DNA from: an uncultured Actinomycetota bacterium | Lineage (GTDB): Bacteria; Actinomycetota; Actinomycetes; Mycobacteriales; Mycobacteriaceae | Reading direction: 5' to 3' | DNA length: 64,000 nucleotides | Assembly: GCA_963753505.1 (NCBI GenBank) | Contig: CAVWCK010000002.1 | Location: 205,659-269,658, forward strand | Shown: piece by piece, positions 27,949 through 47,649 of the stretch | Numbering within the stretch: position 1 is the first letter of the stretch | How the letters are laid out: each line of letters begins with the position of its first letter | Made by a program: the position numbers and the translations under genes | Notes under the pieces: model-generated | Told to the model about the DNA's origin: nothing | The model's input: the letters and a program-made list of their open reading frames with translations, nothing else | Databases searched by the model: none

Positions 27949-29439
27949 TTAGTACGCGCCTGAACCGCTCAATAGCGCGCGGACTGTCTTCATCGCGATC
28001 AGCAGATCACCGATCATGGACCAGTTCTCGACGTAGGACAGGTCCAGCCGAACGGATTCCTCCCACGACAAGTCGGACCGTCCGCTGATCTGCCAGAGGC
28101 CGGTAATGCCGGGTGGCACGAGAAGGCGGCGGCGCACGTCGTCGTCATACCTGGCGACCTCGGAAGGCAACGGCGGCCGCGGGCCCACCACACTCATCTC
28201 CCTGCGTAGCACGTTGATGAACTGTGGCAGCTCGTCGATGCTGTATTTGCGCAGGAACCTGCCGACCGGGGTTACCCGTGGGTCGTTTCGGATCTTGAAC
28301 AGAACGCCACCGTCGCTTTCGTTCAAGCTCAGCAGCTGCTCACGACGCTTATCGGCGTCAATCACCATGGTCCGGAACTTGATCATCGGGAACGGCCGTC
28401 CGTCCAGCCCGATGCGCTCAGACAAGTAGAAGATCGGACCCCTGCTCGTGCATTTGATCGCGATGGCCGAAGCGATCATCAGTGGACCGGCGATCAGCAA
28501 CACGAGAGTCGCGAAGACCAGGTCGAATGCCTGCTTTTCAAAGCGCTTCGCGCCGCGGTACTGCGGCTTCTCCAGATGAATGAGTGGAAGTCCGGCCACG
28601 GGTCGCATGACGACGCGTGGGTTCGCCACGTCGACGACGCCCGGCGAGACCACCAGGTCGACGTCGAGCTTCTCCAATTCCCACGAAAGGCTGCGAATGC
28701 CCTGCGGACCAAGATGCTCTGTGGCCGTCAACGCGACGGTGTCCGCGCGTGAGGCGGCGATGGCCTCGGGGATATCGCTTTCTCCTCCGTACACCGGCAG
28801 CAGCCCCACGCCGGGGACGTCGATGCCGTCCCGCAGAGTGCCGCCTGGTGTGCACACGCCGACGACGGTGTAGCCGTAGTCGGGGTGGCGTGCCAGAGCC
28901 TGGGTGAGCGCGCGCACTGAGCGCGGTTCGCCAACGGCGAGCACAGAGATTTGGAACTCGCCGAGCTCGCGTCGCTTGGCGATGACTCGGCGCGCCACGC
29001 AACGGCCGCCGAGTAGGCAGACCATTCCGAGCGGAAGCGCCAGCGCGAGGTAACCCCTTGCGATCTCCAACTTGAAAAGCATCGACGCCATCGCCACGGC
29101 ACCGAACACCGACAGTGTGGCGGTCCAAACCCGCCGGTATTCCTCGGGTCCAGCTCCGGTGATGCGCCGCGAGCGGGTCCGGTAGATCGACAAGGCGAGC
29201 AGCCAGGTTACGGCCAGCACGACCGACACCACGGTGTAGTCGACCTTCCAATAGACAAGGTCCTTGCCGGCCTCGCCGAATCGAAGCCGCTGGGCGACTA
29301 CCACGGCAAGGATCACGACGGCGGTATCGCAGACCTGTAGCCAGCGAATGTATTGCGGTTGCCATGACGCTCGAGCGGGGGCGGATTCGCTAGCTGCACT
29401 AGGTTGCTGTCGGCTTACGTCAACTTGTGACGCTGTCAT
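27949..29439 (-). CDS. Priming polyprenyl-phosphate glycosylphosphotransferase (WcaJ/CpsE-like)
   Basis: N-terminal TMs, CoA-binding-like middle region, and Bac_transf motifs KQAFDL, KFRTM, DPRVTPVGRFLRKYSIDELPQFINVL, VVGPRP. Confidence 0.94.
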   Translation of the reverse strand: MTASQVDVSRQQPSAASESAPARASWQPQYIRWLQVCDTAVVILAVVVAQRLRFGEAGKDLVYWKVDYTVVSVVLAVTWLLALSIYRTRSRRITGAGPEEYRRVWTATLSVFGAVAMASMLFKLEIARGYLALALPLGMVCLLGGRCVARRVIAKRRELGEFQISVLAVGEPRSVRALTQALARHPDYGYTVVGVCTPGGTLRDGIDVPGVGLLPVYGGESDIPEAIAASRADTVALTATEHLGPQGIRSLSWELEKLDVDLVVSPGVVDVANPRVVMRPVAGLPLIHLEKPQYRGAKRFEKQAFDLVFATLVLLIAGPLMIASAIAIKCTSRGPIFYLSERIGLDGRPFPMIKFRTMVIDADKRREQLLSLNESDGGVLFKIRNDPRVTPVGRFLRKYSIDELPQFINVLRREMSVVGPRPPLPSEVARYDDDVRRRLLVPPGITGLWQISGRSDLSWEESVRLDLSYVENWSMIGDLLIAMKTVRALLSGSGAY

Positions 29440-29526
29440 CGATCTCCGTTCGCCAGGACCAGGGTGCAACGGGATAAATATGTCACGCGAGACGCAACTT
29501 GGCGAGTGAAGCACGAATTTTCTTTG

Positions 29527-30141
29527 CTAGCAACTCTGGCCCTGCGAGAGAGCCTTGACCATGGCGCCGTACTGATACAGATAGGTGTATTCCCATTCCG
29601 CCAGGTTGAAGCGGTACGCACGCGGTACCGCGTGCATGATTAACGCGTCTGGCGAATTCGAGAAGCATTGCGAGAAGATCATCCGGGCACGCGGAAGATG
29701 GAACCGCCAACTCACCACGATGATGGACCGCCATCCGCGTGTGTCCGCGAGTCGCCGCACCATCGAGGCCTCTCCGCGCGTGGTCTCGGCCAGCGGCCTC
29801 CCGCAAATTACTTCGACACCGGCGATGGTTTCGTTACAGGCGCGCCGCATGACGTCGTCGCTGGTCGGATAGGGGTCGGATAGCACCACTGCCTGCGCTA
29901 GTCCGCGACGGGCCAGCCCGAGTCCGTAATCTTCTCTTCCGTCATGGTCGCCTGCGAGCACCACTACGGCATCAACCCTTTTCAGCGGGTCATCGGGCGC
30001 TTCGGAGAAGACCGCGAAGCCGGTCGCACCGATCAGCACCAGGACGGCCACGACGGCGCATCCAGCTATAACCAACGCGCGCTTGCGCGGTGCGAAGCCA
30101 CGCAGAAAACGATATCTGGACACAGACATGGTCTGCGTCAT
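29527..30141 (-). CDS. YdcF/DUF218 (ElyC/SanA-like) membrane-anchored protein
   Basis: N-terminal TM; DAVVVLAG, TTRGEA, IIVVSWRFHLPRARMIF. Confidence 0.78.
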   Translation of the reverse strand: MTQTMSVSRYRFLRGFAPRKRALVIAGCAVVAVLVLIGATGFAVFSEAPDDPLKRVDAVVVLAGDHDGREDYGLGLARRGLAQAVVLSDPYPTSDDVMRRACNETIAGVEVICGRPLAETTRGEASMVRRLADTRGWRSIIVVSWRFHLPRARMIFSQCFSNSPDALIMHAVPRAYRFNLAEWEYTYLYQYGAMVKALSQGQSC

Positions 30142-45424: not shown

Positions 45425-46465
45425 TCAGTCGCGGGCGAGCGCGGCAGCCGCGGCCTTCGGCCGCCAATCCGACGTCAGCAGCGCGCCGAAGTTTGATTCG
45501 CGGTTGTCCTGATCACCACTGTTGTTGTCGCGCACGCTGTAGATGAACGCCGGCCCGGTGTAGTCCAGCCGTGCCGCGGCCGCCAGGACGTCGACGATCT
45601 GGCGGGCCTGTTCCTCCTGGCTGACACCTTCGGCGGTGCTTGCGCTTGTCGGCGCACCGAGCTCCGTCATCCAGATCTTCTTGCCCCCGTCACCGTGAGC
45701 GACCATGACGTCATGCATTCGGGCGACGTCCGACCACCCGTTCAACGGGTCGGCTGCGAAGCCGGTTGGGAAAACATAGGGATGCATGGCCGCGGCGTCG
45801 AAGTAGCCCTTCGCGCCAGCGTCATACATCGAGGCCAGGAAAGCCGGCGGGGCCTCGGAGCCCAGCAGAGGGCTCAGGCCCGCCGCGATGACCGTGCTGT
45901 TGGGCTGGACGCTCTTGATCGCGGGATAGGCCGCCTTCAGAAGCTCCGTATAGCGCGGGGCGTTGTAAGTGGCGAAGCCGAAGAACGAGGCGAGGTTGGG
46001 TTCGTTCCAGATCTGCCAGTTCGACACGCGCGACCCGTACCTGCCGATGACAGCCTTCGCGAAATTCGCGAACGCGTCCGCATCGACGGGGGGCGCGGTG
46101 AAGTATGCGCCCGGCGCGCGGGCCCAGGGCGGAGTGAAGGCGATGTGGCCAAGCACCTTCAATCCCCTGGCGGTCGCGCCGTCGACGATCCGGTCGAACA
46201 CTGACCAATTGATTTGTCCCTGAACCGGCTCAGCCACATTCCAGTCGATCAGTACCCGCAGCCAGGAGGCGCCCGTCTGCGAGACAGCGTCGAGTTCGCG
46301 GTTGAGGTCCTGCGGGTTGAGGTACAGCATCCAGGAGCCCTCGCTGAACCCGTACCCGGCCGCCGGAGCCGCCGGCTGCGCGGAGACGCGAGGTGGATCG
46401 GGGAGCACAAGACCGGCGGCCAGAAGAACCACGCCGACGATCCCGACGGAAAGCACACGGCGCAT
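45425..46465 (-). CDS. Secreted clan GH-A (GH5/GH39-like) glycoside hydrolase
   Basis: Sec-type signal MRRVLSVGIVGVVLLAAG; WQIWNEPN, AMHPY, KKIWMTELG, ESNFGALL. Confidence 0.87.
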   Translation of the reverse strand: MRRVLSVGIVGVVLLAAGLVLPDPPRVSAQPAAPAAGYGFSEGSWMLYLNPQDLNRELDAVSQTGASWLRVLIDWNVAEPVQGQINWSVFDRIVDGATARGLKVLGHIAFTPPWARAPGAYFTAPPVDADAFANFAKAVIGRYGSRVSNWQIWNEPNLASFFGFATYNAPRYTELLKAAYPAIKSVQPNSTVIAAGLSPLLGSEAPPAFLASMYDAGAKGYFDAAAMHPYVFPTGFAADPLNGWSDVARMHDVMVAHGDGGKKIWMTELGAPTSASTAEGVSQEEQARQIVDVLAAAARLDYTGPAFIYSVRDNNSGDQDNRESNFGALLTSDWRPKAAAAALARD

Positions 46466-46917
46466 TCGCACAGCGCAGAACATACCCGAGCGCCACACCT
46501 ACGTCGTCTGCATGGCGTCCTAATCTCGAATGGCCATAGAGTCGCCAATCGCGTTGGCGTTGTTTGTCATTGACGGACACATGGGTGCTGGCAAACGCAG
46601 CCGCAACGCTACGAGCAACCACGTTGCAACTGAGGCGCAATCGCGAGCGGGGGCCGTCGACGCGGTCGTAATCGCGCTCCGGCTGCGCTGACTGATTTGC
46701 GGGCTGGCAACTGAAAGTACATACCCGCGCCTGGCCGCCCTCGGAACCGCAAACTCGTTGCAGTCGAAGGCTGTGGCACCCAGAACGTCGCTGCGGGCGG
46801 ACAGTTCCGGTCGGCCCGGCTGCGGTTTGTCGTCGGCGTCTTGGCCTCGTGGCTACCGAAGGCTCTGCTCGGGTTAGGATTTGCCAACGCAAGCATTGAC
46901 CTCTCCGAAGGGCGCAG

Positions 46918-47649
46918 ATGGGTAACCCCACCGGCAACATCAATTACATGGACTTGGAAGACCTTTGGCAAGGTTATGACGACCTGCTGGTGGAGCTGGC
47001 GCAGCGCGAAGACGCGAAAGCCGTCGCGGAACTCGGCGGCGGAGCCAAACCGCTCGTGGCCGATCCCGAGAAATGGGGTTTCGCGCAACATCGTGCGGTC
47101 ATCGACATCTCGGCCGACGAACTTGCGAAGGCCGAGGCCGACGTTGATACGCAAGTCGCGGATCTGTGCCAGCCGATCAGCGAAGGGCAGGGCTCGTATG
47201 ACCTCGTCTTCTCGAAAATGTTGTGCGAGCACTTACCCAACGCTCGCGCGTTTCACGAGAACTGCTTCAAGTTGCTGCGTCCCGGCGGGTTGGCGGTCCA
47301 TTTCTTCCCCACGCTCTACACGCTGCCATTCGTGATCAACCGGCTGATGCCCGAACAGTTGGCCAGGACGGTGCTCCGCAAGATCCAGCCCGGGCGAATC
47401 GATGACCCCAAGCTCGAAAAGTTCCCGGCCTACTACCGGTGGTGCACGGGCCCGACCCGACGGGCGATGAGGCGCTACCAGAGCGTGGGGTTCGAGGTAG
47501 AGACGTGGAATGCGGCCTTCGGACACGATTACTACGCCGTGGCTCCACCGCTGCACGCCGTGGAACGCACCAAGACCAGGCTGCTGACCGCGCATCCGGT
47601 CCCGTTCCTCACCAGCTTCGCCGCGGTCGTCCTCCGGAAACCTGCCTGA
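46918..47649 (+). CDS. Class I SAM-dependent methyltransferase (Methyltransf_11-like)
   Basis: VAELGGG, YDLVFS...EHL, LLRPGG. Confidence 0.8.

Follow-up and report, generated by a model that had tools for sequence, protein, structure and literature searches.

A predicted Wzx/Wzy-type polysaccharide locus between birA and accD5 in an uncultured member of the Mycobacteriaceae

We analyzed a stretch of 64,000 nucleotides (the window) from an uncultured actinobacterium of the family Mycobacteriaceae (assembly GCA_963753505.1, contig CAVWCK010000002.1, positions 205,659 to 269,658), in which a group of genes resembling a Wzx/Wzy-dependent polysaccharide locus lies between the conserved genes birA and accD5. 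This group, referred to here as the island, occupies window positions 27949-47649 (19.7 kb) and consists of 17 intact open reading frames (ORFs; Table 1); all 17 genes that the initial annotation had placed between birA and accD5 were found. Families were assigned with Pfam and NCBIfam profiles against the family cut-offs. The island is compared below with L090, an orthologous locus of a related species (Logan contig SRR31358408_13) that has the same gene order and also adjoins birA, with clusters of Williamsia sp. CHRR-6 (JAHCSG010000001.1) and Rhodococcus sp. NBC_00294 (CP108043.1), and with the islands of two genomes (G024 and G009) that likewise lie between birA and accD5.

The putative priming phosphoglycosyl transferase (PGT) scores 419.9 bits against TIGR03025 (cut-off 295.6), aligns with WbaP structures (E 1e-50) and retains both the DE dyad (DELPQ) and the PRP motif (GPRP), and it represents the initiating transferase of a Wzx/Wzy pathway. 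It is the best conserved gene of the island, with 60-65% identity across Mycolicibacterium species. Three glycosyltransferases (GTs) are encoded as well. GT_a has homologues of 45-51% identity in related islands, and GT4_c exceeds the cut-offs of all four families that it matches. The position of GT_b is conserved in L090, Rhodococcus and Williamsia, with a ratio of nonsynonymous to synonymous substitution rates (dN/dS) of 0.10. No match to sugar-nucleotide enzyme families was obtained among the 17 island ORFs in Pfam or NCBIfam.

Several further proteins are predicted to decorate the product. The Methyltransf_24 protein, which is 86% identical to its L090 ortholog (dN/dS 0.083), likely O-methylates the repeat unit, as judged from its family. 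The gene for the AT3 protein follows the wzy gene in the Rhodococcus and Williamsia clusters as well. The first of two WcaF-family acetyltransferases is listed in Table 1 as its longest ORF; its orthologs have about 181-195 amino acids (181 in L090). Homologues of the DUF218 protein (50-58%) are found near PGT genes in many mycobacterial loci, and DUF218 is absent from L090. The methyltransferase next to accD5 (Methyltransf_11) has homologues of 60-66% identity at the equivalent position in G024, G009 and M. moriokaense. Its gene cannot occur in loci in which birA and accD5 are less than 400 bp apart (see below); it belongs to the variable region, though it is better conserved than the remaining island.

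The ORF assigned as flippase gave no significant match in Pfam, NCBIfam or PDB sequences (best Pfam hit Polysacc_synt, E 2.7), and neither scanning of 16 homologues one by one nor a PDB profile search returned a family match. An AlphaFold2 (AF2) model built from a 16-sequence alignment reached a predicted local distance difference test score (pLDDT) of 86.8 and a predicted template modelling (TM) score of 0.84. In a Foldseek search this model matched the flippases MurJ (6nc8, E 4e-7, TM score 0.66) and WzxE (9g9n, E 8e-6) ahead of MATE transporters, and the ORF is therefore regarded as a divergent flippase of the MOP superfamily, the predicted fold placing it as the Wzx protein of the pathway. 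Homologues in JGI carry the label 'O-antigen/teichoic acid export membrane protein'. Because these homologues are about 392 amino acids long, the true start of the 408-amino-acid ORF is probably near 36436.

The gene upstream of the AT3 gene encodes a Wzy-type protein whose homologues in G009 and G024 share 37-42% identity. A back-translated pattern search for Wzy in genome contigs revealed no relatives, and a whole-genome Wzy search of 36 congeners found homologues in these two only; such scarcity is expected for proteins that evolve as fast as Wzy.

The Wzz-type co-polymerase of a Wzx/Wzy pathway is also encoded, and NCBIfam profiles support it (TIGR01006, E 4.5e-18; TIGR01007, E 4.6e-27). 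Homologues in Rhodococcus and Williamsia are recorded with PF02706. Its C-terminal part (39350-39871) resembles bacterial tyrosine kinases (BY-kinases) and lacks the features of an active enzyme: the P-loop reads ADADAKAGADT, without the Walker A Lys, and the protein ends in NVKRA with no Tyr cluster. The P-loop Lys is also missing in the homologues of L090, G024, G009, Rhodococcus and Williamsia (Arg in G024 and G009), and none of these homologues has a Tyr cluster either. As this degenerate P-loop is common to several genera, it represents an old, conserved pseudo-kinase state and not decay or an accident of one lineage. The dN/dS of the gene against L090 is 0.136.

Directly downstream of the co-polymerase gene and in the same direction lie three genes for PF03583 proteins (LIP1, LIP2 and LIP3). 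A Ser-Asp-His triad is evident in the LIP alignment, and four Cys residues are conserved in 12 of 12 full-length members, which is consistent with export. A canonical lipobox occurs in LIP3 (LTGC) only, LIP1 (ATAC) and LIP2 (LPAC) being loose matches. LIP3 matches the cell-wall-degrading esterase LipA of Xanthomonas oryzae among PDB sequences (3h2g, E 1.9e-10), and its AF2 model (pLDDT 82.4) retrieved Candida antarctica lipase A (CalA; 3guu, E 1.4e-18) and LipA (3h2i, E 1.2e-15) in Foldseek. LIP2, which likely starts at the ATG at 41250, carries Ala in place of the nucleophilic Ser (window 41844-41846); its motif is GGALG, the L090 ortholog (dN/dS 0.151) has GGAEG, and LIP2 is probably a pseudo-enzyme on the strength of these residues. 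In Williamsia the Ser is kept in all three LIP copies. One LIP paralog of G024 has no GxSxG motif whatever.

Divergent LIP subgroup paralogs were found inside PGT/Wzy loci in four of the five genomes checked, accounting for three of five LIP genes in the source genome (G000), five of eight in G024, four of ten in G009 and five of eight in G086, while high-scoring core LIP genes are located elsewhere in the genomes checked. A role of the LIP genes as mere passengers, unrelated to the locus, was rejected, since a LIP gene next to Wzz recurs in L090, G024, G009 and Williamsia; the LIP paralogs that flank PGT and Wzy genes in G086 also count against it. A further PF03583 protein of the source genome (193.8 bits; G000:C2:201393-202235, about 4 kb upstream of the window) belongs to a different subgroup from the trio. 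Among the distant LIP3 homologues P0113, P0124 and P0137, one of them from a Steroidobacter metagenome-assembled genome (MAG), some are fused to PF06439, and one such fusion is named 'family 16 glycoside hydrolase' at NCBI. These fusions hint at carbohydrate-linked substrates. Linkage and fold suggest that the LIP proteins have ester groups on the polymer, or on its carrier, as substrates, which they would either hydrolyze or transfer.

The glycoside hydrolase (GH) of the island has a hydrophobic N-terminal segment, and its WNEPN (acid/base) and TELG (nucleophile) motifs align with WNEPN and TEWG of PslG, so that a predicted periplasmic hydrolase of the PslG family with both catalytic Glu residues is present, as in Psl. 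A paralog (37% identity, E 7e-57) with a C-terminal LGFP wall-binding repeat is encoded 5 kb outside the island in a local dip in GC content (0.58-0.61). Along its full length this GH+LGFP protein shares 40% identity (E 8e-112) with the one encoded after AT3 in the Rhodococcus cluster and, to judge by this likeness, may be a further functional component of the polysaccharide system.

Table 1. Predicted genes of the island, its flanks and a nearby hydrolase gene, with window coordinates.
Feature	Coordinates	Strand	Evidence
birA, conserved left flank, outside locus	27047..27901	-	BPL_LplA_LipB + BPL_C
Priming polyprenyl-phosphate hexose-1-phosphate transferase (PGT), large WbaP/WcaJ-type, monotopic	27949..29514	-	Bac_transf 221 bits + CoA_binding_3
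DUF218 membrane-anchored accessory protein	29527..30141	-	PF02698 46.6 bits
S-adenosylmethionine (SAM)-dependent methyltransferase, Methyltransf_24	30611..31402	-	PF13578 47.1 bits
AT3 integral-membrane O-acyltransferase	31467..32720	-	PF01757 (Acyl_transf_3) 93.9 bits; ~10 hydrophobic segments
Putative Wzy-type polymerase, Wzy_C domain	32698..34197	-	PF04932 36.7 bits (cut-off 31.7); ~14 hydrophobic segments
GT_a, GT-B (GT4-like) glycosyltransferase	34146..35261	-	Glyco_trans_1_4 64.6 bits
Divergent MOP-superfamily flippase (Wzx), 408-aa ORF	35258..36484	-	Predicted fold only
GT_b, GT-B glycosyltransferase, weak family match	36433..37527	-	Glycos_transf_1 19.4 bits, Glyco_transf_4 16.3 bits
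WcaF-family hexapeptide O-acetyltransferase 1	37594..38370 (longest ORF)	-	NF007797 E 5.7e-29
Polysaccharide co-polymerase, Wzz domain + C-terminal BY-kinase-like domain	38543..39871	+	Wzz 24.6 bits, AAA_31 23.4 bits; 2 transmembrane segments
LIP1, CalA/LipA-type alpha/beta-hydrolase, putative lipoprotein	39928..41256	+	PF03583 60.5 bits; GGSLG nucleophile elbow
LIP2, LIP paralog, Ala replacing nucleophilic Ser (GGALG)	41130..42467	+	PF03583 59 bits
LIP3, predicted lipoprotein esterase	42500..43699	+	PF03583 47 bits; lipobox LTGC, GGSQG
WcaF-family hexapeptide O-acetyltransferase 2	43701..44348	-	Hexapep 46.9 bits; NF007797 E 4.8e-34
GT4_c, GT4 glycosyltransferase	44397..45413	+	Glyco_trans_1_4, Glycos_transf_1, Glyco_transf_4, Glyco_trans_4_4, all above cut-off
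Secreted PslG-like (GH39-related, clan GH-A) predicted endoglycosidase	45425..46498	-	PslG 4zn2 E 1.3e-21, residues 55-356
Class I SAM methyltransferase beside accD5	46918..47649	+	PF08241 (Methyltransf_11) 33.2 bits
accD5, conserved right flank, outside locus	47700..49313 (ORF 47439-49313)	+	Carboxyl_trans 686 bits
PslG-like GH + C-terminal LGFP wall-binding repeat, outside island by 5 kb	21137..22666	+	LGFP + Cellulase + GH39

The chromosomal setting is mycobacterial in gene order, with a GC content of about 66% in the window. Upstream of the island are genes for NTP_transferase, GT2, RmlD, LCP, acyl-CoA dehydrogenase, PurK, bPH_2 and BirA, the rmlD/wbbL/LCP genes being 8-11 kb away (LCP gene 18636-20120, 8 kb), and downstream accD5 is followed by maf. 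We take the upstream order to fit Rv3264c-Rv3279c and that of both flanks together to match the Rv3264c-Rv3282 region. The birA protein is 55-64% identical to that of other mycobacterial loci and accD5 83-94% identical across 80 mycobacterial loci, being closest (92-94%) to several Mycobacterium and Mycolicibacterium species. The source genome contains two 16S copies. The GC content of the island is modestly lower than that of the remaining window (62.8% vs 65.9%), and GC at third codon positions is 0.70-0.79 in 16 of the 17 island genes (GH 0.82) vs 0.76-0.88 in flanking genes. In a promoter and terminator scan, promoter matches were no better than in shuffled sequence.

Selection was assessed with the Nei-Gojobori method on 15 island genes and on purK, bPH and birA, each compared with L090. 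The island genes gave dN/dS values of 0.08-0.17 vs 0.14-0.21 for the three flanking genes, and synonymous divergence (dS) of 0.67-1.11 vs 0.56-0.72 for the flanks. This pattern, together with the shared gene order, indicates that the locus is older than the split of both species and is under purifying selection. Recent horizontal acquisition as a mobile island was rejected as the main explanation: no tRNA or Rfam element that could mark a boundary was found in the 64-kb window, and the dS against L090 is like that of the flanks. The tRNA/Rfam scan, the dS and the GC content thus give no sign of a mobile island, integrase genes and direct repeats not having been specifically searched.

The initial annotation implied that such a locus is rare in mycobacteria, and this was not borne out. 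Within the genus, 136 of the 201 genomes encode a Bac_transf protein and 119 a Wzy_C protein, and among the matches listed the two lie within 30 kb on one contig in at least 62 genomes, at a median distance of 11 kb. Some 380 kb downstream of the window (G000:C2:633197-649962), another locus of Wzy type is present in the source genome, in which a Wzz/BY-kinase paralog (37%) is accompanied by a gene for Wzy_C (639988) and a short ORF for Bac_transf (649312).

A survey centred on accD5 covered 80 mycobacterial loci from named isolates and MAGs, of which 71 were informative. In 25 of these, including the slow growers M. innocens, M. ostraviense and M. angelicum, birA lies less than 400 bp from accD5. 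Gaps of 1.3-8.5 kb are present in 23, two of which hold a PGT alone and one a single LIP homologue; island-gene homologues stand directly upstream of accD5, with no birA within 10 kb, in another 19 (among them M. moriokaense, M. lacusdiani, M. iranicum and M. kyogaense), and in the remaining four neither birA nor island-gene homologues were seen. About a quarter of accD5 loci thus have a related island. The two gaps with only a PGT homologue (60-62%) measure 1.9 and 2.6 kb and belong to Mycobacterium sp. E740 (L095) and Mycobacterium sp. NPDC050551 (L105). Because the gaps of these two species hold the PGT alone, the gene content suggests that the PGT gene occupied the site ancestrally, the other genes having been gained or lost around it. 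The islands of G024 and G009 contain the same families in diverged form (Wzy 37-42%, PGT 61%) with four to five LIP paralogs. Conservation falls from the PGT (60-65%) to Wzx, Wzy and Wzz, the least conserved (33-43%), the same gradient as in classical cps and O-antigen loci. Among non-tuberculous mycobacteria this polysaccharide locus is widespread, hypervariable and vertically maintained, and the island represents one of its alleles.

Taken together, we consider it likely, with good confidence, that the island functions as a Wzx/Wzy-dependent locus whose product is an O-acetylated and O-methylated heteropolysaccharide made outside the cytoplasmic membrane, and that it is one allele of a birA-accD5 variable locus found in many non-tuberculous mycobacteria. 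In the pathway that we propose, the gene identities are those observed and the steps are read from the families. The WbaP-type transferase would load hexose-1-phosphate onto polyprenyl phosphate, and the three GT4 enzymes would draw on housekeeping nucleotide sugars to finish a repeat unit of about four sugars. At the cytoplasmic side this unit would be decorated by two WcaF-like acetyltransferases, and probably also by the Methyltransf_24 enzyme, before the divergent MOP flippase carries it across the membrane, where the Wzy_C protein would polymerize it and the Wzz-type co-polymerase modulate chain length. Given the degenerate kinase domain, this control is probably independent of phosphorylation. 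AT3 would attach more O-acyl groups at the outer face, the PslG-like hydrolase would trim or free chains, and the three lipoproteins of CalA/LipA type, whose genes probably share a transcript with that of Wzz, would work on ester groups of the polymer or lipid carrier.

The proposal of a decorated Wzx/Wzy-type locus in the initial annotation is thereby upheld, with family or motif evidence for each step and all frames intact, and parts of it need amendment. The locus had been called complete, which applies to the inner-membrane steps only: no Poly_export/Wza is encoded in the genome and the Wzc-like kinase is degenerate. The co-polymerase stands as a Wzz-type protein but not as a kinase, and of the three lipase lipoproteins, all of them PF03583 members, LIP3 alone has a canonical lipobox and LIP2 lacks the nucleophilic Ser.

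Several observations weigh against the functional polysaccharide locus that we favor. The flippase is identified by a fold predicted from 16 aligned sequences, both family scores of GT_b are below cut-off, the Pfam Wzz score of the co-polymerase is 1 bit short of its cut-off (25.5), and the role of the LIP proteins is drawn from linkage and fold only. A surface location is assumed for the product, and no match to OPX/Wza (outer-membrane polysaccharide export; Poly_export, PF02563) was found in the whole 5.82-Mb genome, the same search being positive for the controls E. coli, Caulobacter, Bacteroides and Thermotoga. Among sequencing runs, one soil metagenome matched the locus (10% of sampled words) and no RNA run did. 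There is also no known product: in the full-text literature searched, which excludes most subscription journals, no paper on a Wzy-type locus or its product in mycobacteria or close relatives was found, as the initial annotation had anticipated. Finally, the Wzy_C domain is common to polymerases and to WaaL/PglL-type ligases, which leads to a different reading of this protein, as a ligase or oligosaccharyltransferase that transfers single or short glycans onto an acceptor, for instance an envelope lipoprotein (such as the LIP trio), peptidoglycan or arabinogalactan, without any free polymer. The breadth of PF04932, which spans O-antigen ligases, PglL and polymerases, and the modest score fit this reading, as do the three putative lipoproteins encoded in the locus and the LCP ligase gene upstream; however, a Wzz-type co-polymerase is conserved nearby in every related cluster, the PslG-like endoglycosidase implies a polymeric substrate, and the LCP gene belongs with the conserved rmlD-wbbL neighborhood, not with the island. 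We regard ligation as very unlikely.

The presence of three CalA-type hydrolases in one operon raises the question whether the LIP proteins are acyltransferases and the product is not a high-molecular-weight polysaccharide but a small glycolipid or oligosaccharide that carries acyl groups. CalA-family enzymes are able to catalyze acyl transfer, and many acylated oligosaccharides are known from mycobacteria. The predicted polymerase, the co-polymerase and the flippase are nevertheless all encoded and under purifying selection, and to our knowledge the known mycobacterial glycolipids are made without Bac_transf/Wzx/Wzy machinery, which makes a small product highly improbable. A reading of the island as a functionless remnant, silent or in decay, we consider extremely improbable. 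The degenerate kinase domain, the LIP without nucleophile, the absence of DUF218 from L090 and the lack of a matching RNA run could be read in this way, but none of the 17 frames is disrupted, the low dN/dS range (0.08-0.17) takes in Wzz and LIP2 as well, the catalytic motifs of PGT and GH are kept and the degenerate P-loop is common across genera.

If the island functions as a polysaccharide locus, it raises the question of how a repeat-unit polymer leaves a cell with a mycomembrane and no Wza-type channel. The LIP trio and the kinase-dead co-polymerase are candidate clade-specific parts in this respect. A more far-reaching proposal, which we put forward as speculative and rather unlikely, is that the trio, as two active enzymes and a nucleophile-less binder, is a mycolata-specific replacement for the missing Wza/Wzi step and trans-esterifies fatty acyl groups onto the growing polymer, so that a polysaccharide bearing fatty acids is anchored in or passes the mycomembrane, and that the birA-accD5 site of environmental mycobacteria is serotype-like and determines phage receptors. 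As a single locus the island is unexceptional and ordinary in kind; its value lies in the class. Work on the envelope centred on pathogens has described surface glycans from GT-C, ABC-transporter, GlgE or PKS routes, and Wzx/Wzy machinery is encoded by the majority of the species sampled in the genus, with birA-accD5 as a fixed hotspot of diverse alleles. In environmental mycobacteria this bears on biofilm formation, desiccation tolerance, pollutant uptake and phage adsorption. A 2026 review of the envelope treats Wzx/Wzy systems for other bacteria only.

The closest relatives of the island are the L090, Williamsia and Rhodococcus clusters, which resemble it in gene order and in a flippase of 51-87% identity (87% for L090); no described product was found for any of the three. 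Williamsia has both divergent operons, with Wzz and three LIP genes opposite Hexapep-GT-flippase-GT-Wzy-AT3, and Rhodococcus has the Hexapep-GT-flippase-GT-Wzy-AT3 block together with Wzz and, after AT3, the GH+LGFP gene. Both differ from the island in having two extra epimerase/dehydratase genes and a location other than birA-accD5; in Rhodococcus, moreover, there is no LIP gene within 10 kb and GH+LGFP replaces the short GH. The island is a member of a Mycobacteriales cluster family whose own features are the LIP trio behind a kinase-dead co-polymerase and the absence of OPX.

Two other pathways share parts of its logic. With the arabinogalactan/galactan pathway of mycobacteria the island shares the organism and the polyprenyl phosphate carrier. 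There, priming is by a polytopic enzyme of WecA type, and processive GT2 enzymes, an ABC transporter and LCP ligation serve the later steps, with no Wzx/Wzy; in the island the primer is monotopic and of the Bac_transf family, and a MOP flippase and Wzy are encoded with it. The group 1 capsule and colanic acid systems of enterobacteria (WcaJ/WbaP, Wzx, Wzy, Wzc, Wzb, Wza, WcaF) share the assembly logic, the WcaF-family acetyltransferases and a fixed site of variable content with a conserved PGT and divergent Wzx/Wzy. They differ in that the Wzc-like protein of the island lacks the Walker A Lys and the Tyr cluster and that Wza is missing; no phosphatase is encoded in the island, and no Wzb was seen there.

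The parallel to Psl of Pseudomonas aeruginosa (pslA-L), drawn already in the initial annotation, holds for the parts list. The host here has a mycomembrane in place of an outer membrane with lipopolysaccharide, PslD, the Wza-type outer-membrane exporter, has no counterpart in the source genome and a PslB-type gene none in the island, and the island adds hexapeptide acetyltransferases, methyltransferases, DUF218 and three LIP esterases. Shared by both are a WbaP-like PGT, several GT4 enzymes, Wzy-like and Wzx-like proteins (here a Wzy_C protein and a flippase of MOP fold), a polysaccharide co-polymerase, AT3 and a GH39 hydrolase, the last being a true PslG homologue (E 1.3e-21) whose catalytic Glu motifs align with those of PslG.

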